Part shown: piece by piece, positions 1 through 62,713 of the stretch
Position numbering within the stretch: the stretch's first letter is position 1
How the letters are laid out: each line of letters starts with the position of its first letter
Position numbers and translations under genes: made by a program
Origin: an uncultured virus (IMG/VR IMGVR_UViG_3300044974_001201)
Lineage: Duplodnaviria > Heunggongvirae > Uroviricota > Caudoviricetes
IMG/VR virus record: IMGVR_UViG_3300044974_001201
Strand: one strand, 5' to 3'
DNA length: 64,000 nucleotides
Notes under the pieces: generated by a model
Databases searched by the model: none
What the model was told of the DNA's origin: nothing
What the model saw: the letters and a program-made list of their open reading frames with translations, nothing else

Positions 1-130
1 CCGAGGCAAGCGTTCCGATCGACGTAGCGAGGCTCGAACGGGTTGCCAACCCTACCCTCGCTAACACTGGTAAACATGGGCTTTCTCAGTCTCCTTAGAA
101 AGCCTCACCCTTCAGGATGAGGTCGTTTAC
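1..130 (-). mobile_element. End of an IS200/IS605-superfamily (IscB/ISC-type) element with the 5' part of an omegaRNA (HEARO-like) scaffold; continues beyond the window edge
   Basis: Minus strand reads GTAAACGACCTCATCCTGAAGGGTGAGGCTTTCT..AGAAAGCCCATGTTTACCAG..TAGCGAGG..CCTCGCTACGT. GTAAAC/GTTTAC close nested hairpins, matching the remembered IscB omegaRNA layout GTCAAC-CCCnnnCTAAAGnnnGGG-GCTT..AAGCCC..GTTGACCAG..CTACGTT. Confidence 0.75.
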
Positions 131-1155
131 GCGGCGACCTCCGCACCGACGGCCCGCGGGCCATAGGCCGCGAGCAACCCTAGCGCCTCGCAGAACGCCT
201 CTTCTGCGTTCTTCTGCGCGTAGTCGCTGATCCAGTGCCCGCCCTTGCGGAACGCTTCCCACGCGGCCTGCGCAGCCCCGGAGAGCGACGTTCGCCATAC
301 GTGGTGCCCCGCCTCGTGGGCGAGCGTTCGCGCAAGTTCCCGCGGCGTCTCGTCCGCTGCGAGCGACGCGCACACCTCGACGGTGCGCCTCGACGGCTCG
401 TAGCCACCCGCCACCCGCACGCCGTCGGAAACGCACTCCACGGTGAGCACGAGCGGCGGCATCCTCGCGAGGAGCCACGGCACGCGCCGCTGCACCCGGA
501 GCAGCCGCAGCGCCTCCGCGAGCACGTCGAGCGCCCGCGCCGCGGTGCGCTCCGCCATCGGTCGCAAGCCGACGCTCACGCCCTCGACGACGACCCGTTC
601 CGCGCGAGCAACGTACAGGGTGACGGGGCGACTCGACGCGAGCGACGCAAGGTCCGCGAACGCCACTTGCGCCCGCGACCACGCCGCGCGCTCCCACTCG
701 CCACGGCGCCGTGTGAACGTCTGGAACGCATCGCGTTGCCACGCGGCGAGGCTCCGCTCCTCGATCGGCGGGGAGAACACACCGGGCGCGAGCGAGACCT
801 TCGCGACGAACGAGGCGACCGCCTTCGGTGCGATGCCCGCAGCGTCGAGGCCCGCGCGCAGTCCGCGGAGGTAGGCGCCGTAGGTCGCCGCGAGTTCCGC
901 TAGCGTGTCGCGTGCACGGAGCGCCTCGCGGTAGTCGCCCGCGTTGCGTGCGGCGGTGATGGCGGCGAGGTACGCGCGGCGGAACGCTTCGACGAGGGCG
1001 GGCGTGAGCGGGATGCGCTCCGTCGCATCGCCGCCGAACACGCGAGCATCGGGCAACTCGACGGAGTGCCACGAGCCGCGAGCGCGAGGGGTAGCGGCGA
1101 AGGGGAGTTCGCGCTGCGGGGAGGCGTCGTGGCGTTGTCGGCGAGGGCGGGGCAC
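127..1155 (-). CDS. Zincin-type metallopeptidase-domain protein; C-terminus probably clipped by the IS insertion
   Basis: LAHEAGHH (HExxH) plus SDYAQKNAEEAFCEA third-ligand motif; GTG start at 1155 inferred; stop TAA lies inside the IS end. Confidence 0.75.
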   Translation of the reverse strand: MPRPRRQRHDASPQRELPFAATPRARGSWHSVELPDARVFGGDATERIPLTPALVEAFRRAYLAAITAARNAGDYREALRARDTLAELAATYGAYLRGLRAGLDAAGIAPKAVASFVAKVSLAPGVFSPPIEERSLAAWQRDAFQTFTRRRGEWERAAWSRAQVAFADLASLASSRPVTLYVARAERVVVEGVSVGLRPMAERTAARALDVLAEALRLLRVQRRVPWLLARMPPLVLTVECVSDGVRVAGGYEPSRRTVEVCASLAADETPRELARTLAHEAGHHVWRTSLSGAAQAAWEAFRKGGHWISDYAQKNAEEAFCEALGLLAAYGPRAVGAEVAA

Positions 1156-1195: not shown

Positions 1196-1519
1196 CTAGC
1201 GCGTGCGGCGCTTCTTCTCGCGAACGTAGTCGGGCGCCCGGAGCCCCTTGCGCTCGTAAGCGTTGACCACGAGAAGCCGCGCCTTGCCGCGACCGTAGCG
1301 GTCGACCACGACCATCGCCGCGTCGCGCGCGTCGAAGAATGGGTACGTCCCCTTCGGCATACCGTTCGGGAACGCCTCATCGACGTGGATCTTGAACTCC
1401 GGCCCCGTGCCGGTCGCGTTGCCCATCGGCCCCGCGGTGAGTTCGTCGGTGACAATCACCATCCCGTCACGCAGCGCCCGCGCGACGTAATGGAGTGCTT
1501 CGGACTTGAGAATGCCCAT
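1196..1519 (-). CDS. Hypothetical protein
   Basis: 107-aa ORF with protein-like composition, GGAGGA RBS. Confidence 0.7.
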   Translation of the reverse strand: MGILKSEALHYVARALRDGMVIVTDELTAGPMGNATGTGPEFKIHVDEAFPNGMPKGTYPFFDARDAAMVVVDRYGRGKARLLVVNAYERKGLRAPDYVREKKRRTR

Positions 1520-1576
1520 CGTTTCCTCCGCGCGGCGTTGCCCGATTTGTAGTCGGGCGTCAATCGCTCGATGCGA

Positions 1577-1864
1577 TCACTTCGGGTTGTGCAGGTAGCC
1601 CGCGGGGAACAGCCGCGCACACTCACTCCCGACGGGGTAGAACCCCATGTAGCCATCGTCGTTCTCGTCGGCCTTCTCGCCGATCGGGACGAAGCGATTG
1701 CCGCCGTCGGCGACCTCCGCGAACTTCGCGGGCGAGGAGTTCTTGACGGGCTTGCCGCAAATCACGCACGGCGTCGCGTCGTCGCCGCACTTGCCTTCGT
1801 TCTTCGAGTAGTTCGCGCCGCTGAAGGGGGAGGGGACGGGCTTCTCGGTGCTCGTGGTTGCCAT
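1577..1864 (-). CDS. Small CxxC-containing hypothetical protein
   Basis: CVICGK and GSEC motifs; directly downstream of a conserved promoter repeat. Confidence 0.75.
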   Translation of the reverse strand: MATTSTEKPVPSPFSGANYSKNEGKCGDDATPCVICGKPVKNSSPAKFAEVADGGNRFVPIGEKADENDDGYMGFYPVGSECARLFPAGYLHNPK

Positions 1865-1949
1865 GCCCCTTCTACGCCTCGTGGCGACCGAACCTTACGG
1901 GCCGACGAAACTATTTCGGGAGCCCGCCTCGCGTGATAGCCTGCGCGGC

Positions 1950-2327
1950 GTGAAAACTGCCACTAAGGGACTCAGTGCGGACACGATGCGCCGGTTGCTC
2001 ACCGCCGTTCGCAAGCACGGCGCCGCGGTGCTCAAGTTGCCGGTCGCCATCGAACTGCTCGCGAAGGCGACGCCCGCACAACGCAAGCGCGTCAAGGCCG
2101 TGCAGAACGAACCCGCGGGGCTGCTCTACCGCACGACGGACCGTGAGACGGGCGCAGTCGGGTCGGTGTACCTCGCGAGCGAGCAAGGCGTTGACGCCGA
2201 CACGAAGTACGTCGTGGTGTGTGAAACGCACTCGAACACACTCGCCGACGAGACGCTCAAGGTCGCGAAGCGCGACGCAGCGAACACCCGTGACTGGTGC
2301 GACGGGTGCCAGTCGAAGCGACGCTGA
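1950..2327 (+). CDS. Hypothetical protein with C-terminal Cys/His cluster
   Basis: CETH and WCDGC motifs; GTG start inferred. Confidence 0.6.
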   Translation: MKTATKGLSADTMRRLLTAVRKHGAAVLKLPVAIELLAKATPAQRKRVKAVQNEPAGLLYRTTDRETGAVGSVYLASEQGVDADTKYVVVCETHSNTLADETLKVAKRDAANTRDWCDGCQSKRR

Positions 2328-2360
2328 ATACGCGACTGCGCGGGAGCGTATACTCTCGCG

Positions 2361-3026
2361 ATGCCCACGCACGCCACCATCGTCGCTCCGCCCGCGGAGA
2401 AGCTCAACGTTCGCGAGAAGATCCTCCTCGCCGCGATCACCCTCGAAGCCGAAACGTTCGATACGGACACCCTCGTCGTGTGCGCGTGGAAGCGTTACCC
2501 CGAGTCGTTCTCACTCGGAGCACACCCTTACCCCGACTCGAACGCGGTGATCGCGAGGCTCTGCGGCAAGGACGGCCTCGTCGGTCTCCGGTGGTTCGAG
2601 CGCCCCGCGCCGGGAACGTTCCGCGTGACGAAGGCGGGTCGCAACCACGCGATCGACCTCGACGTGCGGGGGCGCGAGGTGCGCAACCGCGAGCGCAAGG
2701 CTTCGCAGAAGCGATCCTCGCGACCGAAGCCGCCCGAGCCTGCCATCGCCCCGAAGGCGTTCGCCGAACGCGATATCCTCGCCGTCTCTCGCCTCGCGAA
2801 GTCGCCCGCGTTCGCCCGCTTCAACCGGGCCGTCGCGCTCACCGCCGACGATGCGCGCGAGTTCTGGTTCCGCACGACGCCCGACTCGGTACGCGAGTTG
2901 ATCGACCGCGCCTGCGACTACGTGATCGGCGCCCGACGGCCCGACGGACGTGTGCCCGAAGTCGGCACGCTCGGGGTGCTCCGCAACCTCAACTCGACGC
3001 TGGCGCTCAGGTTCCCGCCCACGTAG
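2361..3026 (+). CDS. Hypothetical protein with winged-helix-like N-terminal domain
   Basis: LVVCAWKRYPESF..YPDSN..GL..W..FRVTKAGR wing pattern; TATACT 7 nt upstream of the ATG. Confidence 0.7.
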   Translation: MPTHATIVAPPAEKLNVREKILLAAITLEAETFDTDTLVVCAWKRYPESFSLGAHPYPDSNAVIARLCGKDGLVGLRWFERPAPGTFRVTKAGRNHAIDLDVRGREVRNRERKASQKRSSRPKPPEPAIAPKAFAERDILAVSRLAKSPAFARFNRAVALTADDAREFWFRTTPDSVRELIDRACDYVIGARRPDGRVPEVGTLGVLRNLNSTLALRFPPT

Positions 3027-3064
3027 CCCTTGCCATCGCGGACGTTTGCGGGCATTTTCGCGGG

Positions 3065-3853
3065 ATGTACACCGCCGCGATCGGACGCCACGTTTCCGCA
3101 GTTTCCCACCGCCACTACGCCACCGCCGCCCTTGAGGCGTCGCTCCTCGCCCGCATTCACCGCAGCAAGACCGCGCGCGTGATCGACGGGCGCGGGCACG
3201 TCACTCGCGTGGCGGCGCTCTCCCGTGGCCCCGTGGGGCGCCGCAAGGCCCACCGCAACCCCGACTGGGGCACCGCGAGCGAGGTGACCCTCCGCGATGC
3301 GATGCTCTCCCTCGACGCGGGCGCATGGCGTGAGTTCCACAAGCGGTACGACAAGCTGATCGCCAGCGCGGCCGACAAGGTCGTGAGCAAGGGTCGCAAC
3401 GCCTCCGACGCGGTGGCCGAGATCAAGGGGAACGTGTACGCGAGCCTCCTCGCGAACGATCTTCACAAACTGCGTGCGTGGGATGCTGCGAGGGGGCAGA
3501 AGCTCGGCTCGTTCGTGCACATGATTGCGGGCAACGCCGCATGGGACTACGTTCGCGGTGGCAAGCGGCGCCGCACCTCGTCCCTCGACACGCCGATGGG
3601 CGACGACGACGACTCGGGCGTGCGGGAGTTCGCCGACGCTTCGCCCGATGCGTTCATGCGCACGGCGTCGCGCGCGGAACTCGCGTCGGTGATGCGGCAC
3701 CTGAGCGACCCGGAGAAGGAACTCGCTGTGCTGCGCTTCGTCGAGGAACTGCCGTCCAAGGAAATCGCGGCCCGCGTGGGCATCGCGCCGGGGACGGTCG
3801 ACGTGAAGATCAACCGCATCCGTGCGAAGCTCGCCGAAGCGATGGCGGGCTAG
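3065..3853 (+). CDS. ECF-type RNA polymerase sigma factor with a basic N-terminal extension ending in RNP
   Basis: Region 2 (AWREFHKRY..KLRAWD..LGSFVHMIAGNAAWDYVR) and region 4 (LSDPEKELAVLRFVEELPSKEIAARVGIAPGTVDVKINRIRAKL). Confidence 0.9.
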   Translation: MYTAAIGRHVSAVSHRHYATAALEASLLARIHRSKTARVIDGRGHVTRVAALSRGPVGRRKAHRNPDWGTASEVTLRDAMLSLDAGAWREFHKRYDKLIASAADKVVSKGRNASDAVAEIKGNVYASLLANDLHKLRAWDAARGQKLGSFVHMIAGNAAWDYVRGGKRRRTSSLDTPMGDDDDSGVREFADASPDAFMRTASRAELASVMRHLSDPEKELAVLRFVEELPSKEIAARVGIAPGTVDVKINRIRAKLAEAMAG

Positions 3854-4053
3854 CGGCGTTCGAGCATCGACCCGGTGCGGACGAAACACGATCCGACGAT
3901 CGCTCCGTACCACCTGATCGCAGCCTCGTCGAACGACGAAATCCCATCACGCTTCACCGGCACGAGGTTGCGCAGTCGGCGCCGCGTCTCGGCGACGATG
4001 CGCTTCTGCGCACGGGCGCGCTGCTTCTGAACGTGGCGGCGGCGCTTGTTCAC
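3850..4053 (-). CDS. Small basic hypothetical protein
   Basis: GTGA start/stop coupling with the upstream ORF. Confidence 0.4.
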   Translation of the reverse strand: MNKRRRHVQKQRARAQKRIVAETRRRLRNLVPVKRDGISSFDEAAIRWYGAIVGSCFVRTGSMLERR

Positions 4054-4196
4054 AGCGCGCTCCCTGCGGTTGCGATCGCCAGCGCGTCGAGGTCTCGCGC
4101 GAACGATGCGTGGCGCTTCTGGAACCCGCGGAACCATGCGTTGGCCTTCTCGCCGCGACGGCGGGCCTTCTGGAGACGACGACGAGTCTTGTTCAC
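4050..4196 (-). CDS. Small basic hypothetical protein
   Basis: GTGA coupling on both sides, AAGGAG RBS. Confidence 0.45.
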   Translation of the reverse strand: MNKTRRRLQKARRRGEKANAWFRGFQKRHASFARDLDALAIATAGSAL

Positions 4197-4450
4197 GAGT
4201 TTTCTCCTTCGAGTGCGAGGCGGTAGTGCTCGACGAGCGCGCGTGTGTTCCTCGCCGTGTCGAGCGCGGCACCGTGCTTGAGCGTGAGCCCGTAGCACAC
4301 CGCTTGTTTCATCGCCGTGGGTTCGGCGAGGTAGTCCGCGCGGGCGGCAGCGAGTTCCGCGCCGATGCGCTCCGCGGTGGCGACCGCGCGGCGCGCGATC
4401 TCTTGCGAGGCGACGTACGCCTCGCGCATGTATTCTTGTTCTGTTCGCAT
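4193..4450 (-). CDS. Hypothetical helical protein
   Basis: 85-aa ORF, AAGGGG RBS. Confidence 0.6.
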   Translation of the reverse strand: MRTEQEYMREAYVASQEIARRAVATAERIGAELAAARADYLAEPTAMKQAVCYGLTLKHGAALDTARNTRALVEHYRLALEGENS

Positions 4451-4685: not shown

Positions 4686-4746
4686 GGTGGCCCCTTCTAC
4701 GTCGCCAGCCGAGGCGACCTTACGTCGCCCCGATTGAATTGCTCGT

Positions 4747-5865: not shown

Positions 5866-6600
5866 ATGACCACCACGAAGAAAACGGTCAAGGGAACCTG
5901 CGGCGCCTGTTTCCGCAAGATGGCGCTCGACGCGAACGGTCGCGTTCTGCGCCACGGGTGGCGCGAAGTCGGCGGGCGGCGTGTCGGTTCGTACGGCAAC
6001 GTCTACCACTCGGGTCCGTGCTTCGGCGTCGCACGCCTCCCGTTCGAGGTGTCGCCCGACTGCACCATCGCGTTCGTCGCGGAGGTGCTCCTGCCGATGG
6101 CACTCGCCACTGGCACGCGCATCGACGCGCTGGCGGCGAACCCGCCGATCAAATACACGGGTTGCGTTACCGTCGGGTATGGCCGCGAGGAGCGCGAGTG
6201 GGGAGCGTTCGAGGTTCGTGTTCAACACGGCGAGGGCGAGACGCGCCCGCTGCGCTGGTACGGTGAGGCGCTTCACGAAGATTCCAACGCGCGCATCCCG
6301 TCGTACGCCGCGCTGCACAAGGTCGCCGTGCGGGAACTCACGGACAAGCGCGACGCGATCGCCAGCGACGCGATGCACTGCCTCCGCGCGATCGAGACGT
6401 GGGCGCCCGCCGCGGTCGCCACGGTCGAGAAGAAGGGTGCGCTCGTGCACGCGCACGGCTCGCACCCCGTGCTCGCGGCGTGTGGGCGGCGCCTCATTTC
6501 GTTGTCGGGCGCGAGAATCCACGTCGCGAAGAATGTCGAAGCGGCGACGTGCCCGAAGTGCCTCGCGAACCTCGCGAAGAAATCGGCGGCGACGGTGTAA
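5866..6600 (+). CDS. Zn-finger-like protein, paralogue A
   Basis: GTCGAC..H..C and H..C..CPKC motifs. Confidence 0.8.
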   Translation: MTTTKKTVKGTCGACFRKMALDANGRVLRHGWREVGGRRVGSYGNVYHSGPCFGVARLPFEVSPDCTIAFVAEVLLPMALATGTRIDALAANPPIKYTGCVTVGYGREEREWGAFEVRVQHGEGETRPLRWYGEALHEDSNARIPSYAALHKVAVRELTDKRDAIASDAMHCLRAIETWAPAAVATVEKKGALVHAHGSHPVLAACGRRLISLSGARIHVAKNVEAATCPKCLANLAKKSAATV

Positions 6601-6630: not shown

Positions 6631-7197
6631 ATGGCAACCACGAAGATTACGGTCAAGGGCACTTGCGGCGCGTGTTTCCTGCCGATGGCGCTCGACGTGG
6701 ACGGTCGCGTAAAGCGCCACGACTGGCGCGAGCCCGGTGTGCGCCGAGCGGCGGTGTACGGCAACGCGGACCATCATGGCCCGTGCTTCGGGAGCAATCG
6801 CCTCCCGTTCGAGTTATCGCCCGACTGCACCGTCGCGTTCGTGGCGGATGTACTCCTGCCAATGGCGCTCGACACGGGTGCGCAACTCGACGCGCTCGAT
6901 GCGCAGGCCGCCCTCCGCGATGCCGCGGCACAGGAACTCACCAAGCGGCGCGATTACATCGCCAGCGACGCGGCGTACTGCCTTCGTGCGATCGAGACGT
7001 GGGCTCTCGCGGAGGTTGTCACCGTCAAGAAGAAGCCGCGGCTCGTGCACGCACGCGGTTCTTACCGCGGCTTCACGGCGTGTGCGCGCCGCATCACGTC
7101 GTTCTATGCGAACCGCGCCGTGACTGAGAATGCCGACGCGGCGACGTGCCCGAAGTGCCTCGCGAGCCTCGCGAAGAAATCGGCGGCGACGGCGTAA
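6631..7197 (+). CDS. Zn-finger-like protein, paralogue B (lacks the central region of A)
   Basis: Shares GTCGACF, GPCFG, LPFE.SPDCT.AFVA.VLLPMAL, CLRAIETWA and AATCPKCLA.LAKKSAAT with 5866-6600. Confidence 0.8.
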   Translation: MATTKITVKGTCGACFLPMALDVDGRVKRHDWREPGVRRAAVYGNADHHGPCFGSNRLPFELSPDCTVAFVADVLLPMALDTGAQLDALDAQAALRDAAAQELTKRRDYIASDAAYCLRAIETWALAEVVTVKKKPRLVHARGSYRGFTACARRITSFYANRAVTENADAATCPKCLASLAKKSAATA

Positions 7198-12063: not shown

Positions 12064-14634
12064 ATGAGCAAACGTACTGCATTGAGCGCCGCACTCGCCG
12101 TCTCTCGCGTGGAGAAGGACGTCGAGAACGCCTACCGCGCGGAGGTTTCCGCGCAACGCCCCGACGCCTCGTGGTCTTCGCCGCACGCCACCGACGGACT
12201 CGCCGTGTGGAGCGCGAGCACGCCCCCGGTGAGCGTGCGCCTGCTTCTCGAAGCGAAGTACGACCTCGACTTCAAGTCGCGAGGCCCCGTGTGCTCGGTT
12301 CTCGGGCAACTCATCCTGTACCTCAAGAAGTTCGAGGCGAGCGGCGCGGCGATGCCGAACGTGCTCCTCGTCGGCGACAGGAACGAGTGCTTCGTGCTCG
12401 CGACCGACGCCGTGCGTGGGTTCCTCAACATGAGCCTCGACTGGAACGTCGCGCCGTCGGCGGGATCGCCGGAACTCACTCGTGCGCTGGTGAGCGGGTT
12501 CAACTTGTTGCCTTACGTCTACGACGTCAACGGTGACCTCGACTTCGGTGATGTGCTCACGAAGATCGAGACACTCGCGGCGGGCAACACGCATCACGTC
12601 CGCGCGACGCGCACGAACCTGAGCGCGATCTTCGTGTACTGGCGCGACAACGTTTTCAAGAACCCGGAGAAGGGCAAGGGCGCGCTCACGCCGACGGAGC
12701 AAGTCGATGTGTTCCTGCGGTGCCTGTTCCACCCCGACGAAGTTCACCCGCACCCGACGAAGCGCGGCGTGCTCGTGGTGCCCGGTTACGACGACGCCGT
12801 GCTGGTCAACGCGGACCAGTACCGCAGTTTCTTCGCGCACTTCGAGCAAGGGTACAAGCCCTCCGAAGTCGAGGCGTTTTACGCCGACAAGGACCGACTC
12901 GTCGAAGATGATGCGCGCCGCCGTCAAGGAGCGTTCTTCACACCGGCCATCTGGTCCGAGCAAGCGAACAAGGAACTCGAACGTGTGCTCGGCGCGAACT
13001 GGCGGAGCGAGTGCGTCGTGTGGGACTGCGCCGCGGGCACGGGCAACCTCACGCGCGACTACAACGACTGGGGGTGCCTCATTTCGAGCACCGCCGAACG
13101 CCCCGACGTGAACGTAATGCGCGAGCAAGGGTGGGGCGGGCAGCACGTATTCCAGTACGATTTTCTTAACGACAACGCGCAGTCCCCGTTCTTCGCGCTC
13201 GAAGACGGCGACAACCGCGTGCCGACGCGGGTCGAGAAGGTGCTCCGCGCGGCGGCGAAGGCGGGCAAGCGACTGGTGTTCTATATGAACCCGCCGTACG
13301 GGACCGCGGGCGCCGGGTTGAGTGAAGCAGGCAGGGCGGGCATCGCGAAGAACGCTGTCAACGATTCCATGAAGTCGGCTTCGATGGGAGCCTCGTGCCA
13401 CCAGCTTTATGCGCAGTTCATGTTTCGAGCTTCGATCGTGGCGGAGCATTACGGGTTCAGTTGCGTTACCGTCGCGGTTTTCTCGAACCCCAGGTTTATG
13501 TTCAGTGGTTCTTTCCAGCCGTTCAGGGAGTGGTGGTATCAACGACACGAGTACGTTAGCGGATTCATGTTTCAAGCCTCTCACTTCGCGGATGTTAGCG
13601 GAGCGTGGGGCGTTTCGTTTACCGTATGGAACGACGGGTCTACGTCGAGCAAGCGATCAAACGTAACACTCGTGACGAAAGACGTCGTGGCCTTCCGCGT
13701 GAAGTCTATCGGCGTCAAGCGAGTGCACTGCGCGGACAATCAATCGGCATCGGACTGGGCTAGAGAGTCCGCGGCATTGACAAGCAAAATCGACGCGCCC
13801 CAGTTCAGCAGCGGGTTGACTATTAGCGCGGCAGCGACGGGAAAAATGGCGTCAGGATACATCGCATACCTCGTCAATAATTCTAACGCCGTGTATGACA
13901 GCGGCACGCTTTCGGCGTGGGGATCATCGAAGATGACGCCCACCGGGTTCTCCGTTCTGCCCGCGAACTACCGCCGTGTCGTCTCGCTCTTCGCCGCCCG
14001 CAAGCTCGTCACCGGGAACTGGATCAACGACAAGGACGAGTACCTCGCGCCGACTGCGAAAACCGAGGCGTCCGCGGCCTACAACCGCTGGGTCGACGAC
14101 TGCCACGTCTACGCGCTCCTGCACGGCTCTAACAACTGCACCGCCATGCGCGACGTGCCGTACAAGGGCAAGTCGTGGCGCATCAAAAACCACTGGTTCT
14201 GGCGCACCCGCGAGGCGTCGCTCGCCGCGCTCGACACGCGCGAAACGTCGTCGCTCTACCGCGACTGCAAGGCCGAACCGACGGTCAAGATCGGGCGCAA
14301 TCACTTCACTGGCGAGGCGACGGCGCAGCCGTGGGAGGTGACGGGCGACCCGTACTTCGCCCACGTTCTCCCGTCGCTCACGCTCTCCGCCGACGCGCGC
14401 AAGGTGCTCGATCTTCTCGACGCCTTGTGGGTGAAGTCACTCCCGCTGCGCGAGTCGTTCGCGTCGGGCCGACCGGAACTGCACCTCGCCGCGTGGGATT
14501 CCGGTTGCTACCAGAGCAAGCACCTCTGGCGCGAACTGTTGCCCGCGGAGTGGGCGGAGCTCACCGCCGCGCACAAGGCCCTCGCCGCGCGACTGCAAGA
14601 CGGCGTGTACGATCACGGGTTCCTGCGGCGATGA
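12064..14634 (+). CDS. Type IIG-like fused restriction endonuclease / N6-adenine DNA methyltransferase
   Basis: N-terminal TDG..LLLEAK (PD-(D/E)xK-like); GAFFTP motif X, VWDCAAGTGNL motif I, MNPPY motif IV; C-terminal specificity region. Confidence 0.85.
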   Translation: MSKRTALSAALAVSRVEKDVENAYRAEVSAQRPDASWSSPHATDGLAVWSASTPPVSVRLLLEAKYDLDFKSRGPVCSVLGQLILYLKKFEASGAAMPNVLLVGDRNECFVLATDAVRGFLNMSLDWNVAPSAGSPELTRALVSGFNLLPYVYDVNGDLDFGDVLTKIETLAAGNTHHVRATRTNLSAIFVYWRDNVFKNPEKGKGALTPTEQVDVFLRCLFHPDEVHPHPTKRGVLVVPGYDDAVLVNADQYRSFFAHFEQGYKPSEVEAFYADKDRLVEDDARRRQGAFFTPAIWSEQANKELERVLGANWRSECVVWDCAAGTGNLTRDYNDWGCLISSTAERPDVNVMREQGWGGQHVFQYDFLNDNAQSPFFALEDGDNRVPTRVEKVLRAAAKAGKRLVFYMNPPYGTAGAGLSEAGRAGIAKNAVNDSMKSASMGASCHQLYAQFMFRASIVAEHYGFSCVTVAVFSNPRFMFSGSFQPFREWWYQRHEYVSGFMFQASHFADVSGAWGVSFTVWNDGSTSSKRSNVTLVTKDVVAFRVKSIGVKRVHCADNQSASDWARESAALTSKIDAPQFSSGLTISAAATGKMASGYIAYLVNNSNAVYDSGTLSAWGSSKMTPTGFSVLPANYRRVVSLFAARKLVTGNWINDKDEYLAPTAKTEASAAYNRWVDDCHVYALLHGSNNCTAMRDVPYKGKSWRIKNHWFWRTREASLAALDTRETSSLYRDCKAEPTVKIGRNHFTGEATAQPWEVTGDPYFAHVLPSLTLSADARKVLDLLDALWVKSLPLRESFASGRPELHLAAWDSGCYQSKHLWRELLPAEWAELTAAHKALAARLQDGVYDHGFLRR

Positions 14635-15371
14635 CGTTCACAAGACGCGAACCGAAACGTTCCCCGAGCGAGGCGCTTGCGCTCGCCGCCACGCACATCG
14701 GCGTGATGCACGCCGCCGTCCGCAAGACGATCCGCGACCGCGAGAAGTGGGACGATTTCACGCAGTCGGCGTGGCTCGAATTGTACCGCGCCGCAGAACT
14801 ATACGACCCCGACGAGGGCGTCGAGTTCGGGAGTTACGCCTATTCCTGCATGCGCGGACGTGCCATCAAGGAATGGCGTCGCTCGCGCTGCATCGGCGTC
14901 GTTCCCGCCGCCGTGGCGCGCGTGTTCCGCGTGTTAGAGCGCCGCGGGACGAACACTACGTCGGGTGTCGAGGATGTTCTTGCGCAAGCGTTCACGGGCG
15001 ACTCGCACGGACACTGGGATGCGAGGGCGTTCTTCACGTTCTCGCTCGGCGAACGTTCGCTCTCCGAAGTCGTCGGTGACCAGCAATCGGAGCACCCGCA
15101 GACGCTCGAAGACACACTCGCGGACGATGGGCCGACCGCAGAAGAAGCCGCCGAGGCGACGCAGCGATCGGCCCTCGCGCATCGTATGCTCGCAACGTCG
15201 GGGCTCACCGACCGTGAACGCCTGATCGTCGAAGCGCGCTACCTCAACGACCCGGAGGAGACGCTGCAAGAAATCGGCGACCGCATCGGCGTGAGTCGCG
15301 AGCGTGTTCGCCAAATCGAGGCCGTCGCGCTGCGGAAACTCAGCGACGCCGCGAAGAAGATCGCCCGCTAA
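14631..15371 (+). CDS. Sigma70-family group-3 (RpoH/sigma32-like) sigma factor
   Basis: LYRAAELYDPDEGVEFGSYA (region 2); LTDRERLIVEARYL..TLQEIGDRIGVSRERVRQIE..ALRKL (region 4); ATGA overlap with the methylase. Confidence 0.9.
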   Translation: MTFTRREPKRSPSEALALAATHIGVMHAAVRKTIRDREKWDDFTQSAWLELYRAAELYDPDEGVEFGSYAYSCMRGRAIKEWRRSRCIGVVPAAVARVFRVLERRGTNTTSGVEDVLAQAFTGDSHGHWDARAFFTFSLGERSLSEVVGDQQSEHPQTLEDTLADDGPTAEEAAEATQRSALAHRMLATSGLTDRERLIVEARYLNDPEETLQEIGDRIGVSRERVRQIEAVALRKLSDAAKKIAR

Positions 15372-19238: not shown

Positions 19239-19829
19239 TCACAACTGCGCGAGGATGCCTTCGAGCGCGTCGTCGATTGCCTCCGCCGACGTTCGCCCGC
19301 GGCCCACGTCGCTCCACCGCTCGAACTCCCGGCTGCGGTCGTTCTCGACGGTGAGCGTCACGCGGACGCCGCCGCCACGAAGCGGCTTGACCGTCGCCCC
19401 GTAGAACTCGCCGAACGCCTTGATCTTGCGCAGGATCGCCCGCGTGGTGGCGTTGTCGCGCAACGTGAGTTCGGTTGCCTTGCTCGGGTTGCGGTAGCTC
19501 GCGCGACTCGACGGGCGCTTGCTGCACCCGCAGCCGTTCGCGTGGGCGACGCGCGGCAGTTCGGCGACGATCGACGCCATCGCGTCGTTGATCGCTTCCG
19601 CCTCCGTCGCGCCCTCGCCGTGGTCGCGCCACGTTGTCACGCGGTCGCCGATGCGACTGTGCGCAACAGCCGACACGCTCACCGTCGCGATGAAGCGCCT
19701 GCGCCCGAGTTGCCGAACGGCGACGTGCGACTCGTGCAGCGAGCCGACGGCACGCACCGCGGCGAGGATCGCGCGCCGGTAGCGATCGTCGGGCAGCGCC
19801 ATGATGCCATCGCGCGCCGCCGTAGTCAT
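19239..19829 (-). CDS. Two-domain protein with ANG/RNP basic linker
   Basis: Duplicated W.D.G.G.T.AEAI.DA motif either side of HANGCGCSKRPSSRASYRNP. Confidence 0.75.
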   Translation of the reverse strand: MTTAARDGIMALPDDRYRRAILAAVRAVGSLHESHVAVRQLGRRRFIATVSVSAVAHSRIGDRVTTWRDHGEGATEAEAINDAMASIVAELPRVAHANGCGCSKRPSSRASYRNPSKATELTLRDNATTRAILRKIKAFGEFYGATVKPLRGGGVRVTLTVENDRSREFERWSDVGRGRTSAEAIDDALEGILAQL

Positions 19830-20383
19830 CGGACGACGATCCTGCGGTCGGGGTCCGTCGCGTGCTCTCTCGCGTACGCCCTCGCTCCCTCGATGAACGT
19901 GCCGAGGTAACCCCAGAACTGCGGATGGTTCTCGTTGATGCCCGACGGGATACGCCGGTCCTTGCCAGCCGCCATCACGAAGAGGTCATCGGCGGCGACA
20001 CGGCGGGGCCTCCCGTGCTTGGCGGCGTAGGTCGCCGCCTCCGATGCCGCCTCGTATCCCGCGGACCACACACTCTCGTGAGTGCGAGCGTCGAGCGGCT
20101 TCGTGCCGCGCGTTGATGACGGGTAGAGCGGGTTGCGCGCGGACTTGCGACCGGCGCGCTGCGCTCGACCGTTCGGCATGTACGCGTACATGAACGACTC
20201 GCGGCGCGGTCGGGAGGCACTCGCGTTCTCCGCTTCCGCGAGGTCGATCGCCTTCTGCTTCGTGGCGTAGCGACGGCCGACTTGCTCGCCGGTCTGCACG
20301 TTCACGACGGCGTGCGGGCGATCGTAGGAGTAGTCGGACTCGACGACGTAGCGGGGTGGGTTGCGGGTGGCGTGGCGCGGCAT
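19826..20383 (-). CDS. Modular protein with RNP/PNG/RNP motifs
   Basis: MPRHATRNP..YMPNG..RKSARNP. Confidence 0.75.
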   Translation of the reverse strand: MPRHATRNPPRYVVESDYSYDRPHAVVNVQTGEQVGRRYATKQKAIDLAEAENASASRPRRESFMYAYMPNGRAQRAGRKSARNPLYPSSTRGTKPLDARTHESVWSAGYEAASEAATYAAKHGRPRRVAADDLFVMAAGKDRRIPSGINENHPQFWGYLGTFIEGARAYAREHATDPDRRIVVR

Positions 20384-20447
20384 GGGGCGAGAATGCCCGC
20401 AAACGTCGCGCTGCGCAAGGGGTGAGGGAGGCGAGCGAGGCGAGGTA

Positions 20448-21426: not shown

Positions 21427-21609
21427 CTAGCGGGCGGAGCGGCGCTTCGCGGGCTTGCGACCGGCCTTCGCGGCCTTGATCTTGCGCTCCAGCGCCTTGA
21501 TCTGGAGGCGGTGGGTCTTGCCGCCGACGATCACGGGGATCGTCTTGACGGGAACCTTCTTGGTGGACTTGCGGGCGGGCTTCTTCGCGGACTTCTTCGC
21601 ACGGGCCAT
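21427..21609 (-). CDS. Small Lys/Arg-rich histone-like protein
   Basis: MARAKKSAKKPARKSTKK..; AAGGAG RBS; strongly biased codons. Confidence 0.75.
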   Translation of the reverse strand: MARAKKSAKKPARKSTKKVPVKTIPVIVGGKTHRLQIKALERKIKAAKAGRKPAKRRSAR

Positions 21610-30535: not shown

Positions 30536-31048
30536 TCAGGCGGCGGCGGTGCCCCACCCGCGGTACGCGTTGTCGCCCACGGGAGCGCCCGCGGGGATCG
30601 TCGAGTACGGGTAGCCCGCGCCGAGGCCCATGTAGGCGTTGCTGCCGACGGGGAGCCCGCCCGCGCCGTAGACGCCGGAGGCGGAGCCGTAGCTCGCGGC
30701 CATCGCGGTGCGCTGCGCGTCGAGGGCCGCGGCGACCTGATCGCCGCCGAGCTTGTACGCGCTGTAGCGGAGCACCGCGAGCGTGCCCGTGCCCGCGGCG
30801 ATGCCGAGGCCCACGGACGAGCGCACCATGCCGGGGGTGCCGAGCAGCATCAGCGCGGCGCCGATGCCGAAGCCGCTCAGGCCGATGATGAGATCCTGCG
30901 TCCCCTCGCCCTCCGTGCCCGCGAAGCGAGCGACGAGGTACGAGGCGGCGCCAGCGCCCACGGCGGCGACGGCGGTCACGCCGAGCATGCGCAGGGCCGT
31001 CTTGAGGTAGCCGCCCTCGGGCGGGTTGCGGAGCGAACGATGAGCCAT
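30536..31048 (-). CDS. Multi-TM Gly/Ala-rich membrane protein with SLRNP leader
   Basis: About three hydrophobic helices; GGGAGG RBS; alternative start at 31114. Confidence 0.8.
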   Translation of the reverse strand: MAHRSLRNPPEGGYLKTALRMLGVTAVAAVGAGAASYLVARFAGTEGEGTQDLIIGLSGFGIGAALMLLGTPGMVRSSVGLGIAAGTGTLAVLRYSAYKLGGDQVAAALDAQRTAMAASYGSASGVYGAGGLPVGSNAYMGLGAGYPYSTIPAGAPVGDNAYRGWGTAAA

Positions 31049-31243
31049 GTTGTCTGACCTCCCACCGGGGTTGAGCAGCGTCACGGTTCGGGTGTTGCGG
31101 TTGTCGTGCGCCATCGGTGTGAAGCGTAGATACCGACTCGCCGCAATCGCGTCTACGATTGCGAACGCCATGCCCGCAGTCTATTCACAACAAAACTCAA
31201 ACGTTGTTGCGAATTGAGTTTCGTTGGGTTAGCGTCGGTTCAA

Positions 31244-33655: not shown

Positions 33656-36600
33656 TCAGCCCTTCTTCTTGAGCGCGAGGTAGGCGATGCCCGCGACGGC
33701 CACGGCGCCGACGCCGATCGCGGCCACGGTGCCGGTGCTCATGCCCTGCGCGGGGGGCTGAGTCGCCGTATTGAGAGCGTTCGCCACCGACTGCTGAGAG
33801 GGGTTCGGCCCGAGCGCCGCGATGCGCGCCTGAGCGTCGGCCTGAATGCGCGCGATTTCGATCTGCGCGTTCGCCGCGATCTGCGCGTTCGCCGACGAAG
33901 CGTTCTGGCGGAGCGCCTCGATGTGCTGCGCCGACTCACGATCGAGGTACGAGTTCAGCACGCCGATGCCCGTGGTCGCGATCGAACTCACGCCGCCGAG
34001 GATTTGCGCGGCCGAGGGGCCGCTCGAACCGGGCTGCTGCGCGGCGGGAGCACGGAGGCGCTCGCATTCCACGCCACCCATTTCGACGCAGTTCTGATAC
34101 GCCGAGTTCGGGTCGGCGGGGTCGAACGTCATGTCGGTGCCGGGGGGGTTGCCGCCCGCGGGGCGCACCGGGGCGCCACCGGGCTTCGACGGGCTGAGAG
34201 CCTGCGCGATGCGGCAGAACGAGTCGAACTGGCGCGGGTACTGCTGGCGGCGGGCCGCGCAGTCGTCGATCAGCGCGAGCACGTCGGCCGCGGTGTTGCC
34301 CGAACCGGGGCGCGACGGCACGATCCCGTCGAGGCCCGACTGGTGGAACGCGGCGACGATCGCGCGGGGGTCACGCGAGGCGATCGCGCGGAGCGCCGCG
34401 ATGCACTGCGCCGTGGAGGGAGCGCCCACCGCCGCCGTGCCGGGGGCCACGCTGGAGGGCGAGGCGTTGACGTTCTGAACCACGCGCTCGCCGATCGTCT
34501 GCGACGTCGGCGTCGCCACGTCGTACGTGGGACGGCGGGCGTTCGGCCCCTGAAGCACCATCGACTTGCCACCGGGCGCCCCGCTGGGAGCGAACGCGAA
34601 CTGATTGGGGTTCCCGTTGAACACCGCGGTGCCCGTCGAACCGGGCGAGGTGACCGGGCGCACGATCGCGTTTTCGAGCCGCGCGTCGGGCTTGTGCCAT
34701 CGAGCGTTCGCCATGTTGATGACGTTCGCGCCGCTCTCACTCACGTCCACGTCGAAGTTCGCGAAGTAACCGTCGGGGCGACGCACGATGATGTAGCGGT
34801 AACCGCTCATCACGGGCACACGCCACGTCGTCTGCTGCGGGTCGACCCACTGCCCGGAAATCTGAGGGTACGTGTACGAACCATCGGAGCCTTCGATCGT
34901 GAACACGCGACCGTAGTGGGGCATCCCGAAGATCGCGATCGAACTCGGCACGGGGGCCGAAACGCCGAGTTGCGAGGTCCACACCGCGCCCGCGGGGGGC
35001 ACGTACGCGCGGCCCTCGACGAGAATGCCACCGGGAGCGCCACCGGGGGCGACGTGAGGGATAGCGTACGACGTCGTGGCGCTCGCATAGTTGATGGCCG
35101 CCGCTCCGCTCGCGCTCACGTTCACCGTGAAGTCTCGCCCATAGTTCCCGTCGGGCGAGATGATCGACACGCGGTGCTGGCCGACGGGAGCGCGAACCTG
35201 CCACGTCTGCGGGCCGATCCACTGCCCGCCGACTTCGCGGCCGTCCACGAACACACGCCCGTACGCGGGCATCCCGAAGATCGTGACGGGACGCTCGAAA
35301 TCGGGCGTAAGAGCACCGAACACGGGCGCCTGCGTAGCGCCGACCTTGAGCGAGGGCGCCCCGCTGGGAGCGTGCACGCCGACGGCGTCCGCGAACATGG
35401 CGTTCATGGCCTTGTCGACGGCGAACCAGCGAGCGTTCGCGAGGTTGACGACGGCTGCACCGTTCTCGCTCACGTTCAACTCGAACGTGGTGTACACGCC
35501 GTCGGGACGGAGGATGAAGCCCGCGACGGGGCCAGCGGGCACGTTGACCTGCCACGTCGTCTGCTGCGAGTCGAGCCAGCTTCCCGCGAGTTCACGCAGT
35601 TGAATGCCGCCATCGGAGCCGTATCCCGCCACGAACACGCGCCCGTAGTGAGGCATCCCGAAGATCGTGACGGGGTAGCCGAACGTGAACTGAATGCGGT
35701 TCGGGTCGAAGTCGCCACGGTTCGCCGTCGCGTACGGCGCTTCGTGCGCGCCGACCTTGAGCGAGGGCGCCCCCGCCGCAGCGACACCTCGGGCGTCGAG
35801 CACCATCGCGCAGAAGCGCGACACCTCGGCCGACTCGGGGCGGAACGCGCTCCCGAACCACTGCACGAAGTCCGCCGCCGCAGCGCGCGAACCGCGAGCG
35901 ATTTCGGGCGCGAGCGACTGCGCCATCGGGCACCCGTAGCTGCCCACGATCTCCGCCTGCGCGGACGACGGGAGCGTGAGGAACAGCGCCATGCACTGCA
36001 CCGGGTTGACCGCCGAGGGGGCGCCACCGGGGGCCACGATCATCGTCGGCTCGGCCACGACGAGCGGCATTCCCTTCGCGGACTCGAAGGCGGCGACGCC
36101 CTGCTTCGGGGGCTCGATCAGCGCAGGCGTGGCGCCCGCGAGGAGGCGGCGGAACTCGTCGGAGCAGAGTTCGTCGCCGCTGATGATCTCGGCGACGGAG
36201 TACCCGCGGGCGATGAGGTCACGGAACGACTGCGCGCACGCCGACGACACCGTGGGGAACGTGCCGTCGTCGCGACGCTGGCACGCGATGAGTTCGTTCA
36301 TGCCCGTGGCGTCGCAGTAGTCGGGCCGCGGCTGCTGCGCGGGGAGCGGCACGATGGGCGCGAGCACGAACGGCGCGGGCTGCTCGGCGGGCACCTTCGG
36401 CGTCTGCGAGGGGATCGCGATGTCCGTGCGAGGCCCCTTGCCGCGACCCGTGAGCATCGGCACGGAGAGCGTCTGCGCGGGGCGAACGATCGTCGCCGAC
36501 TGCGCGATGGGCGACGTCGAGAGCGTGATCTTCGTCGGCCCCGACGCGGTGTCGTTGCCGCCGCCGTTGCGAGGGATGCCGCCGCGCTTCATCGCGTCGA

Positions 36601-37192
36601 GAACCTCGTTGGGGGCGAGGCGGATCGAGACCGCGGGCGTCGCCGAGCCGTCGGTGCTCGCGGGGGGAGCCGACGGCTGCGCGATCTTCTGCGGCCCCAT
36701 CGCCACGTCCTGCCCGCCGCCCTGCGCGGTGCGGTTGTTCGGGCGACCCATGCCGCCCTCCACGTCGAGGCCGGGGGTGAGGCGGGGCGGCGGCTTCACG
36801 GGAACCATGCCGGTCTGCGGCTTCACGGGCACCGACGACGGCGAGTCGTTGCGCGGCGTCGCGACCTTCGACTCGGGGGCGGGCGTCACCGCGGGCACCA
36901 CGTCGCCGCGGGGCTGCTCCTGCGAGGGCGTCACGGGCACCGACGGGGCGAGCTTGATGCCCTTGCCCACGTCACCGGGCGACGGCGTGCGCCCGTTCGT
37001 GCGGGTCTTGCCGTCGATCGACCCGCTCTCGACGAGGCGACGACGCGGGCCACCGCCGCACGTACGGCACCCCGTCGAGGGGGCGATGCGGTGCCCGCCG
37101 ATGGCGCTCCCGCTGGTCTGCTTGAGCGGGCACGTCCCGTCGGGGCACTCGCCGTCGCTCACGTCGTTCTTATTCGTCATCGTCTTCGCCAT
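33656..37192 (-). CDS. Large modular putative virion protein: three PEGA-like repeats and a C-terminal TM anchor
   Basis: Three IFGMPxYGRVF..G.W..TW.V repeats; GAP linkers; GMSTGTVAAIGVGAVAVAGIAYLALKKKG. Confidence 0.85.
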   Translation of the reverse strand: MAKTMTNKNDVSDGECPDGTCPLKQTSGSAIGGHRIAPSTGCRTCGGGPRRRLVESGSIDGKTRTNGRTPSPGDVGKGIKLAPSVPVTPSQEQPRGDVVPAVTPAPESKVATPRNDSPSSVPVKPQTGMVPVKPPPRLTPGLDVEGGMGRPNNRTAQGGGQDVAMGPQKIAQPSAPPASTDGSATPAVSIRLAPNEVLDAMKRGGIPRNGGGNDTASGPTKITLSTSPIAQSATIVRPAQTLSVPMLTGRGKGPRTDIAIPSQTPKVPAEQPAPFVLAPIVPLPAQQPRPDYCDATGMNELIACQRRDDGTFPTVSSACAQSFRDLIARGYSVAEIISGDELCSDEFRRLLAGATPALIEPPKQGVAAFESAKGMPLVVAEPTMIVAPGGAPSAVNPVQCMALFLTLPSSAQAEIVGSYGCPMAQSLAPEIARGSRAAAADFVQWFGSAFRPESAEVSRFCAMVLDARGVAAAGAPSLKVGAHEAPYATANRGDFDPNRIQFTFGYPVTIFGMPHYGRVFVAGYGSDGGIQLRELAGSWLDSQQTTWQVNVPAGPVAGFILRPDGVYTTFELNVSENGAAVVNLANARWFAVDKAMNAMFADAVGVHAPSGAPSLKVGATQAPVFGALTPDFERPVTIFGMPAYGRVFVDGREVGGQWIGPQTWQVRAPVGQHRVSIISPDGNYGRDFTVNVSASGAAAINYASATTSYAIPHVAPGGAPGGILVEGRAYVPPAGAVWTSQLGVSAPVPSSIAIFGMPHYGRVFTIEGSDGSYTYPQISGQWVDPQQTTWRVPVMSGYRYIIVRRPDGYFANFDVDVSESGANVINMANARWHKPDARLENAIVRPVTSPGSTGTAVFNGNPNQFAFAPSGAPGGKSMVLQGPNARRPTYDVATPTSQTIGERVVQNVNASPSSVAPGTAAVGAPSTAQCIAALRAIASRDPRAIVAAFHQSGLDGIVPSRPGSGNTAADVLALIDDCAARRQQYPRQFDSFCRIAQALSPSKPGGAPVRPAGGNPPGTDMTFDPADPNSAYQNCVEMGGVECERLRAPAAQQPGSSGPSAAQILGGVSSIATTGIGVLNSYLDRESAQHIEALRQNASSANAQIAANAQIEIARIQADAQARIAALGPNPSQQSVANALNTATQPPAQGMSTGTVAAIGVGAVAVAGIAYLALKKKG

Positions 37193-37267
37193 TTGGTCGA
37201 TCCCTCGGTGAATGAAACGGTTTGCCACCGCGTATCAGTGAGTTTCGCACGAAACGTCGGCGGGTGT

Positions 37268-41744: not shown

Positions 41745-42485
41745 TTACTTGCGACCGCTGCGCGAGGCTTCGTACGCCCGCACGCCGACGTAACCGATGC
41801 CGAGCACGGCGACGATTCCGAGCCCCCACGTCGCAGCGGTCTTCGCTTGCTCGCTAGCGCCGTCGATCGCGTCCGGCAACGTCGTCGGGTGCGTCTGACC
41901 CGAGGTAGGGCCAGTGTGGTTCTCCTGCGCGTCGAGGCGCCCCGTACCGACGGGGAACTCGTCCTTCGTCTGCGTGACCGATGCGCAGTCGGTGCCGACC
42001 GAAGCGCACTGCCACCACGCGAGCGGGCCGTTCGCCGTGGGGTTGTAAGGGAGCACGGCGACGGGTTGCCACCCGATCGAAACGTTGTCGACCGCGTTCT
42101 TGACGCTCGTTCGCAGTTGCTCGACCGTTGCCTCGGTGGGCGTCGTTCCGGGGGGCCACTGGTAGACCCACGCGGCGAACGTCCCGAAACGCTCGCCGAC
42201 GGTGGCCGTACGGGTCACGCGAGGGCCGGGGCCGACCCAGTTGCCGCGCGTCGCTTCGGGGCCTGCGAGGCGCGCAGACTGGAACGCTTCGGTGATCGCG
42301 CGGTACGTCGGGGCGGTGGCGTAGAACACGCTTCGCTCCTCGGCGAGCACGAGCACGGCGGGGCCGGTCGTCGTGGGCGTCGCGGTGATCGCGGACACGG
42401 CGCTCTCCGTGCCCGCAGGCACGGGGTCGCCCGCTCCGCGCCAGAGCACCGGGCGACCGTACGTGAGAAGCAGCGCGCGGTTCAT
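41745..42485 (-). CDS. C-terminally anchored protein, paralogue 2
   Basis: Same motifs as paralogue 1; C-terminal TM with basic tail. Confidence 0.8.
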   Translation of the reverse strand: MNRALLLTYGRPVLWRGAGDPVPAGTESAVSAITATPTTTGPAVLVLAEERSVFYATAPTYRAITEAFQSARLAGPEATRGNWVGPGPRVTRTATVGERFGTFAAWVYQWPPGTTPTEATVEQLRTSVKNAVDNVSIGWQPVAVLPYNPTANGPLAWWQCASVGTDCASVTQTKDEFPVGTGRLDAQENHTGPTSGQTHPTTLPDAIDGASEQAKTAATWGLGIVAVLGIGYVGVRAYEASRSGRK

Positions 42486-44782: not shown

Positions 44783-44789
44783 AGGCGCG

Positions 44790-44819
44790 ACGTTACCGCA
44801 CACCTCGCCGCAAACGCAA
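44790..44819 (-). promoter_or_regulatory. Sigma70-type leaderless promoter
   Basis: TTGCGT-N18-TAACGT-N7-ATG. Confidence 0.55.
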
Positions 44820-62527: not shown

Positions 62528-62713
62528 TCAAGGGCGGCTCTTGCCCTCGACGGCGTTGAGGATGCGCTTCGCTTCGATCACGGAGGCGCGGCGAACCAGC
62601 GACGAAATATCGTCGCCGCACGCCGTCGCAGCGCGCTCGATCAGTGCCTTCTCCTCCGTGGTGAGGCGGAGGTCCATGCGGGCGTCGCGAGGCGTGTCGT
62701 TGTACTTGCTCAT
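62528..62713 (-). CDS. DUF1778/TacA-like ribbon-helix-helix protein
   Basis: RDARMDLRLTTEEKALIERAA..ISSLVRRA..EAKRIL. Confidence 0.8.
   Translation of the reverse strand: MSKYNDTPRDARMDLRLTTEEKALIERAATACGDDISSLVRRASVIEAKRILNAVEGKSRP

Follow-up and report, generated by a model that had tools for sequence, protein, structure and literature searches.

Why does a phage sigma factor begin with 66 residues rich in arginine and histidine? The question is raised by the gene at 3065-3853 in a 64,000-nt stretch of DNA from an uncultured tailed virus (IMG/VR record IMGVR_UViG_3300044974_001201), referred to below as the window. We favor, at a probability of roughly 45%, the reading that this gene encodes a phage extracytoplasmic function (ECF) sigma factor with a fused regulatory, probably inhibitory, N-terminal domain of new fold, together with a linker motif that is shared with a genome-wide leader and junction signal. 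The protein would consist of three parts: first a 50-residue N-domain, then a basic linker, disordered and containing G-R-R-x-A-x-R-N-[P/G/D], and last the sigma2-sigma4 core in complete form. Their coordinates follow (AF2, AlphaFold2; pLDDT, predicted local distance difference test).

3065..3853, plus strand: sigma factor open reading frame (ORF), 262 amino acids (aa) plus stop
3065..3214, plus strand: N-terminal domain, residues 1-50, from structure models
3215..3280, plus strand: disordered basic linker, residues 51-72, pLDDT 48-72
3236-3262, plus strand: linker motif GRRKAHRNP, residues 58-66
3281..3583, plus strand: sigma2 domain, residues 73-173, from profile match, AF2 helices and fold matches
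3650..3847, plus strand: sigma4 domain, residues 196-261 (all within helices), with Sigma70_r4_2 at 205-256

The original prediction had described a complete ECF sigma behind 66 Arg/His-rich residues ending GRRKAHRNP, and this description held. TIGR02937 matched residues 87-260 (E 1.7e-16; 60.3 bits, cutoff 42.9) and Sigma70_r4_2 also scored above its cutoff (38.5 bits, cutoff 25.7); Pfam Sigma70_r2 alone stayed below its own (18.8 versus 24), aligning residues 135-168 with profile positions 37-70. In the full-length AF2 model (mean pLDDT 88.4), the helices at 73-173 and 196-261 are separated by an acidic linker of 22 residues. Foldseek matched this model best to ECF sigmas (sigmaE, SigH, SigL, SigW and BldN) in holoenzyme or anti-sigma complexes. 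The layout is that of the ECF sigmas (group 4), with sigma2 and sigma4 joined by a short linker and without region 1.1 or region 3. In a search of 1.84 billion cluster representatives, homologs of ~200 aa mostly began to align at query residues 63-87, indicating that the canonical sigma core begins just after the RNP. Identity to any deposited phage sigma was at most 27.5%, over part of the protein only, and tblastn with the phage sigma returned weak matches to phiEco32-like phages.

The extension itself is translated and under purifying selection. Its 66 residues include 11 Arg, 2 Lys and 6 His with a single Asp and a single Glu, for an isoelectric point (pI) of 12.0. M[YF]TAA opens each of the 8 close homologs (identity 53-92%, length 256-272 aa), among which residues 1-100 are the best-conserved part, and four distant homologs (P0009-P0012; 32-43% identity) keep the extension as well, bringing the number of homologs with an M[YF] start to 12. 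When the extension is compared with that of L004, a related DNA of the same lineage whose sigma protein is 82% identical, synonymous differences number 15.7 and non-synonymous ones 8.3, for a ratio of non-synonymous to synonymous rates (dN/dS) of 0.175, at a proportion of synonymous differences (0.28) equal to that of sigma2. These observations bear directly on the idea that the extension is an annotation artefact, with translation truly starting past the RNP, at Met 3302 for instance. Arg-rich frames often open ahead of true starts in high-GC DNA, and this frame is open from 2297; ATG 3065, however, is the first start codon past the upstream gene's stop (3026; gap 38 nt), coding-type third-position GC sets in around 3100 and is at least 0.92 from ~3116 onward, the N-domain fold is predicted with confidence, and the dN/dS of 0.175 comes with normal synonymous divergence. 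The shared homolog starts and the selection on the extension exclude a start at Met 3302 in favor of ATG 3065, and we regard an artefact of any kind as vanishingly improbable.

Structure models indicate that residues 1-50 are a folded beta-beta-alpha-beta-beta domain and not a floppy leader, with strands at 2-6 and 9-15, a helix at 18-31, and strands at 36-40 and 46-50. Its pLDDT was 89-94 inside the full-length model and 93-94 when the domain was modelled alone. No fold relatives were found by Foldseek against the PDB (best E 1.3), by VIA-align, in which none of 48,161 chains reached Z 5 (best 4.0), in BFVD (best E 0.17), or in a feature-based search of the ESM Atlas, which gave no usable match; nor was a DNA-binding fold recognised in the Foldseek/PDB, VIA-align and BFVD searches. 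The window holds no paralog of the extension (next best phmmer E 0.093), and a search scored on residues 1-66 only, among proteins of 144-459 aa, returned 7 matches, all 7 of them sigma homologs. By these sequence comparisons, the N-domain appears specific to this sigma family.

Complex prediction places the N-domain on sigma2. When residues 1-56 were modelled against the core (67-262), using our own alignments and with controls, three runs scored 0.68, 0.65 and 0.65, compared to 0.00 for the best control; in calibration, 116 of 157 solved complexes attained this mark, versus 2 of 215 mismatched pairs. The runs agreed in at least 95% of contacts, with partner pLDDT of at least 79. In the predicted interface, the helix and strands of the N-domain lie on core residues 83-92 and 118-133, which fall in the sigma2 helices 85-107 and 113-138, and contacts are made with sigma2 only. 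Because these are the first two long sigma2 helices, upstream of the Sigma70_r2 match, the predicted interface would correspond to regions 2.1 and 2.2. Region 2.2 is a sigma factor's main grip on the beta-prime clamp helices of RNA polymerase.

Since the N-domain is predicted to sit on the surface that separate anti-sigmas cover, we read it as an anti-sigma or pro-domain acting in cis over regions 2.1/2.2, which are used to grip the clamp helices of RNA polymerase. The sigma would be kept inactive, or modulated, until the N-domain is displaced or cut away at the linker. Transcription of its gene would start at a leaderless promoter of its own, read by the main holoenzyme of the host, with additional read-through from an upstream ECF-like promoter, and the active sigma would turn host polymerase toward one of the two ECF-like promoter families described below, or toward both. 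A cis anti-sigma would also account for the missing anti-sigma gene. Anti-sigmas encoded beside the sigma gene are common among ECF sigmas, though not universal. No adjacent anti-sigma was detectable: the flanking ORFs at 2361-3026 and 3850-4053 have no Pfam or PHROG match at E<=1e-3, and the downstream one is convergent, in agreement with the earlier claim that no neighboring gene encodes such a protein.

Several points weigh against this reading. That the docked surface is the polymerase-binding one is presumed from the established role of region 2.2 and from a residue map to E. coli RpoD; a sequence search of solved structures returned sigmaE only (E 0.0095), with region 2.2 not covered. 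The docking scores express model confidence, the N-domain alignment behind them has only 12 rows, and the predicted template modelling score (pTM) of the full-length AF2 model is 0.50. The N-domain is also better conserved than sigma4, which is unusual for a discarded pro-piece and may point to a positive function. In distant homologs, the residue after the invariant Asn of the linker is P, G or D. Inhibition, release, timing and promoter assignment of the sigma are all steps that we infer.

The linker that would connect, and perhaps release, the two folded parts carries a motif of its own. Comparison of 13 sequences shows no change at G58 or N65, and conservation of 90% or more at R59, R60, A62 and R64, in a stretch predicted to be disordered (residues 51-72, pLDDT 48-72). 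These positions suggest a linear motif under conservation, G-R-R-x-A-x-R-N and then P, G or D. For counts of motifs only, we joined the window to its nearest record (G001; 87.6 kb, estimated 71% complete), which encodes an identical sigma, overlaps the window in reverse orientation and extends its left side by 53,017 nt, giving a composite of 117,017 nt. Among the 157 proteins called in this composite, RN[PG] occurs 25 times, compared to 11.7 +/- 3.5 in shuffled sequences (maximum 23 in 500), and it occurs 11 times within the first 45 residues, compared to 2.4 +/- 1.6 (maximum 8 in 500), some of these leader starts depending solely on crude gene calls. Typical N-termini are MPRHATRNP, MKPRRDTRSCARNP, MATTKKSPKKRPAKFASVRNG, MATTRKSPKRAAARKPAAKRRAVRNP and MRRSARRSPRIVRSRKSHRNG, the last being that of a UvrD-type helicase; pooled third-position GC of the leaders is 0.75, below that of gene bodies. 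As this helicase and membrane proteins also bear the leader, it is not specific to head contents. The original prediction had the sigma share its leader with other proteins: the short RN[PG] motif is indeed genome-wide, whereas residues 1-50 are folded and belong to the sigma.

RN[PG] also occurs internally, at domain junctions in four window proteins, two of which are encoded by neighboring genes of one operon.

3065-3853, plus strand: the sigma factor, internal RN[PG] at residue 64
19826-20383, minus strand: internal RN[PG] at residue 83
19239-19829, minus strand: internal RN[PG] at residue 113
30536-31171: membrane protein, internal RN[PG] at residue 48
19826..20406, minus strand: the only other gene with the promoter-like element that precedes the sigma gene (class S, here at 20387-20406); product 185 aa
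19239..19829, minus strand: next gene of the 19826-20383 operon; 196 aa in two similar halves, with a linker ending ...SRASYRNP

In the 19826-20383 product, residues 7-9 are RNP, and residues 79-85 (RKSARNP) form a module junction. In relatives from closely related phages (P0163-P0168 and P0014), its 85-residue N-module, ending RKSARN, is followed by at least five unrelated C-terminal parts directly after RN[G/P/C]. One of these cargoes is a sigma of the same family as the one studied here (P0014; 47% identical over 76 residues, E 4e-18). Another is GNAT-like by our own motif reading. A homology between this N-module and the sigma extension was considered and rejected (hhalign probability 0.9%). 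From the sequences compared, RN[PG] appears to mark the junction of N-terminal modules with variable C-terminal domains. The arrangement recalls the internal proteins of T4, in which a conserved capsid targeting sequence precedes cargoes of diverse kinds (PMC3012670): as in the 19826-20383 module, a conserved N-terminal piece with a defined end precedes highly variable cargo. The sigma's own N-domain differs in this respect, as it is not found on several cargoes (no window paralog, and 7 of 7 matches being sigmas).

Three classes of promoter-like elements, which we call R (for repeat), S and T, surround the sigma gene and recur elsewhere.

3030..3064, plus strand: class S element, TTGCCA (3030-3035), 17 nt, CATTTT (3053-3058), 6 nt, ATG
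2325..2350, plus strand: class T promoter, TGAATA-N16-CGTA, 10 nt before the ATG of 2361-3026
2325, 21379 (minus), 23796, 44854 (minus), 49582 (minus) and 56765: class T copies in the window, the others lying in the composite's left part
1865..1900, minus strand: nearest class R copy, driving the divergent gene 1577-1864 and not the sigma gene
4690..4725, minus strand: next class R copy, downstream of the sigma gene and pointing away
2361..3026, plus strand: upstream ORF, 221 aa, third-position GC 0.88, with a homolog at the same position in L004
3850..4053, minus strand: convergent small basic ORF, 67 aa, overlapping the sigma stop codon by 4 nt

The sigma gene is directly preceded by the class S element, which we take to be a leaderless promoter of sigmaA type, read by the main host sigma. 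The window has exactly two copies of the 20-nt sequence ACGTTTGCGGGCATTYTCGC, at 3042-3061 (plus) and 20387-20406 (minus), where 0.03 are expected, and G001 has two as well; TTGCCA and TTGCGGGCATTCTCGCGGGATG are conserved in L004. A sigma70 promoter scan of 1400-4400 found none, CATTTT fitting 3 of 6 positions and falling below the scan's rule. As the class S core stands only before the sigma gene and 19826-20383, the sigma would be co-regulated with an operon whose products carry internal RNP junctions. One gene upstream, the class T promoter at 2325 is conserved at the same place in L004 despite a diverged spacer. The interval from this promoter to the sigma gene has no detectable terminator; read-through would reach the sigma gene, with which 2361-3026 is possibly co-transcribed. 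The original prediction had the sigma made late; its own conserved element (TTGCCA-N17-CATTTT-N6-ATG) and the TGAATA-N16-CGTA upstream lend no support to that claim, and nothing else points to late synthesis.

The repeated promoters on which the original prediction was built, put there at about 26, proved real, and the sigma gene indeed lacks one. A core matrix found 25-27 class R copies in the window, whereas 10 shuffles gave 0-1 when the threshold was strict; the composite contains 35, with the consensus AAG (33-34 of 35), 17 nt, CGTA (33-35 of 35), then nRAG, and with an A-rich upstream element, GAAAnC, in all 35. The start codon mostly lies 8-12 nt past CGTA, and the ~26 copies precede small genes of early-gene type. 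None faces the sigma gene, the nearest copies, at 1900 and 4725, both pointing away. Among relatives, L004 has 5 copies, and there are 0 in 32 metagenome loci whose sigmas (at most 41% identity) lack the extension. Class T (TGAATA-N15/16-CGT[AC]) counts 13 copies, compared to 0.23 expected and at most 3 in 200 shuffles, and also stands upstream of large genes in the presumed structural block. Classes R and T share one register, AA[G/T]-N17-CGTA. In all three classes, the start codon lies 6-12 nt past the -10-like box (TAGCGT-N6-ATG, CATTTT-N6-ATG and CGTA-N8-12-ATG), a spacing that implies widespread leaderless or near-leaderless messages. Two further candidates were rejected, namely a hairpin at the GTAAGGT box (mean best stem 4.49 versus 4.20 in re-paired controls, maximum 4.8) and a canonical GGAAC-N15-17-CGT class (30 copies versus 12.3 expected), which lies mostly inside ORFs and not before starts.

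Which sigma reads which of these promoters is complicated by a second one.

14631..15371, plus strand: second phage sigma, 246 aa, group-3-like, its ATG overlapping the stop of the 856-aa ORF at 12064-14634

This second sigma matches RpoH, FliA/WhiG and SigB/F/G models, the FliA_WhiG match (E 3e-14) being nearly full length. The 856-aa ORF to which its gene is translationally coupled contains an NPPY motif, typical of N6-adenine DNA methyltransferases. At the head of the operon stands a class R copy, at 11090 (plus); the 856-aa gene is immediately preceded by a class-T-like box, CTGAATC-N16-CGTA. The earlier claim that the sigma at 3065-3853 fires the repeats stands insofar as the ECF-like repeats may plausibly be tied to a phage sigma; the pairing is ambiguous, given the second sigma and the class T family. 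A tentative alternative, which we rate somewhat below even odds, is that this sigma reads class T, including the promoter one gene upstream, and that the second sigma reads class R. Class T has the more canonical ECF layout, besides its excess over expectation (13 copies versus 0.23), and its TGAATA-N16-CGTA stands ahead of the sigma's own operon both in the window and in L004, as would suit the autoregulation typical of ECF sigmas, in which a promoter of the AAC-N16/17-CGT type precedes the sigma's operon. For class R, the boxes (TAAAG...CGTAgAAG) resemble flagellar-type (FliA/WhiG) promoters, and the second sigma has its nearly full-length profile match with FliA_WhiG. Yet the second sigma's operon has a class R copy at its head and a class-T-like box nearer by, an order that fits a cascade in either direction, and one ECF sigma could read both classes, given their common register. 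The simplest cascade would run from the host sigma through class S to this sigma, and from there through class R and/or T to the second sigma.

Why the sigma carries its extension can be explained in other ways. In the original prediction, a late sigma is packed into the virion via its basic leader, trimmed at RN/P by a head-maturation protease and injected to fire the repeats at once. The best point in its favor is the 19826-20383 N-module, whose five or more cargoes include a sigma (P0014) in a manner resembling T4 internal proteins. The enrichment of RN[PG] after a basic stretch at N-termini (11 versus 2.4 +/- 1.6), the ~26 repeats before small early-type genes, and the class T promoter upstream of the sigma gene, of a type likewise found ahead of large genes in the presumed structural block, would fit as well. 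The sigma's own N-domain, however, is unrelated to the cargo module (hhalign 0.9%); it is folded, sigma-specific and predicted to bind sigma2, which accounts for the extension without packaging. Leaders of the same type stand on the UvrD-type helicase and membrane proteins, the sigma gene lies among small non-structural genes with its own sigmaA-like promoter, and no gene for a head protease, capsid or portal was recognised in the window by Pfam and PHROG scans, even at E up to 1 in PHROGs. A literature search, resting on excerpts of its sources, turned up no virion-packaged sigma factor, which is not proof that none is in print. We consider virion delivery very improbable.

If the N-domain were instead a permanent positive accessory, contacting upstream DNA through its basic surface and the linker, contacting polymerase, or displacing the host's main sigma, its very high conservation, above that of sigma4, would be expected, as would the pI of 12.0 of the extension and the conservation of the linker motif despite its disorder; the GAAAnC present in all 35 class R promoters could be read by a DNA-binding appendage. 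This is rather unlikely, as the domain is predicted to lie on the sigma2 helices and not to be free, and no DNA-binding fold was recognised. A broader proposal takes [RK]-[SA]-x-R-N-[P/G] as a phage-wide processing code on at least 15 proteins of this myxobacteria-type phage, cut by a protease or by Asn-driven self-cleavage. It would free the sigma, in a protease-timed step or by capsid maturation and injection, for 35 + 13 ECF-like promoters, and 19826-20383 would be a leader-plus-cargo arsenal; if true, basic leaders would be removed, fused modules separated, and the sigma's cis anti-sigma domain cut off. We hold this code to be distinctly doubtful. Asn-Pro self-cleavage is described, in excerpts of one source, for the anti-sigma RsgI, with its site in a beta-turn, and for reovirus capsid proteins (PMC10328401). 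In contrast to RsgI and reovirus mu1, the phage motif lies in a predicted disordered stretch, and Asn65 is invariant but followed by P, G or D.

The reading that we favor, a sigma with a probably inhibitory domain of its own, has partial precedents. N-terminal extensions of ECF sigmas are rare but described, according to excerpts of a source that lists BldN as a pro-sigma matured by cleavage of its extension, SigC as having an extension proposed to inhibit DNA contact, and SigR' as an unstable long isoform (PMC7826278). Streptomyces coelicolor sigma-BldN (ECF121) is, on the same excerpts, like the phage protein an ECF sigma with an N-terminal extension, removed at maturation in BldN (PMC7826278). 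The phage sigma scores 38.3 bits with TIGR02952, against a cutoff of 206.45, and falls outside the BldN family; BldN also has a separate anti-sigma, whereas the phage extension is a small folded domain predicted to lie on sigma2. Mycobacterium tuberculosis SigC (ECF36s4) and the SigR'/SigH long isoforms (ECF12s1) are described there as lacking a discernible anti-sigma or as having an extra layer of control, with the extension tied to inhibition of DNA contact or to stability (PMC7826278). Unlike in these proteins, the phage extension is modelled on regions 2.1/2.2 and not on DNA-reading surfaces.

Class I anti-sigmas (RseA, RsiW and ChrR) cover the core-binding surfaces of ECF sigmas, as the N-domain is predicted to do, and 1or7, 5wur and 8z6g are among the fold matches of the sigma core. 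They are separate helical proteins held between sigma2 and sigma4, in contrast to the phage N-domain, which is in cis, beta-beta-alpha-beta-beta and predicted to contact sigma2 only. Bacillus pro-sigmaE and pro-sigmaK are kept inactive by an N-terminal pro-sequence, whose regulated cleavage times a developmental programme. Those are group-3 sigmas with membrane-associating pro-sequences of ~20-27 aa and dedicated proteases, unlike the ECF-type phage sigma with its 50-aa folded domain. Phage sigmas such as SPO1 gp28 and phiEco32 gp36 retarget host polymerase to repeated phage promoters. No phage cascade sigma of this kind is known to carry such an N-terminal domain.

The window as a whole (G+C 68%) seems to cover part of the genome of a tailed phage that is both large and very divergent. 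Its 86 ORFs, our own crude calls based on third-position GC, include only ~14 with a Pfam or PHROG match at E<=1e-3, among them an intein-split large terminase, a DnaB-like helicase, the two sigma factors and a TacA-like antitoxin. An IMG/VR search found no relative besides the near-identical record G001. Among cellular homologs of the sigma, the closest are encoded in Polyangiales and Labilithrix genomes (Myxococcota), a weak lead to the host. Other genes and repeats are noted here for orientation.

49580-50737, minus strand: large-terminase-like gene, split by an intein with Hint and LAGLIDADG homing-endonuclease domains
5866-6600 and 6631-7197, plus strand: tandem paralogs, ~75% identical in DNA; both carry a Cys-rich motif, GTCGACF, at the N-terminus and have a class R promoter of their own
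21427-21609, minus strand: protein resembling histone H1, 60 aa, rich in Lys, Ala and Pro; its SPKK-like character recurs in several N-terminal leaders (MATTKKSPKK..., MATTRKSPKR...)
33656-37228 and 42482-44803, minus strand: large presumed structural proteins with internal tandem repeats of ~350-380 nt (families D5, D7, D13, D15 and D17)
62528-62713, minus strand: homolog of the TacA-like (ribbon-helix-helix) antitoxin, in a lower-GC region near the window's right end
G001, left of the window (L039-L041): the UvrD-type helicase, with a 21-aa basic leader ending HRNG, and also an ADP-ribosylglycohydrolase, a class-V aminotransferase and an RRXRR-HNH endonuclease
G001: a 1.76-kb duplication at 85% identity, one copy of which overlaps window positions 1-137

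Phage sigmas are normally described as plain switches, and a sigma with its own inhibitor domain would, if true, be a self-contained timing device. Such a cis inhibitor domain would add a new small fold to the known anti-sigma solutions and offer a compact part for orthogonal gene circuits. The inventory of three promoter classes provides a ready map for transcription studies. Finally, the RN[PG] junction motif, with cargo swaps occurring exactly at it, is a lead on how a divergent phage lineage may process or sort its proteins.

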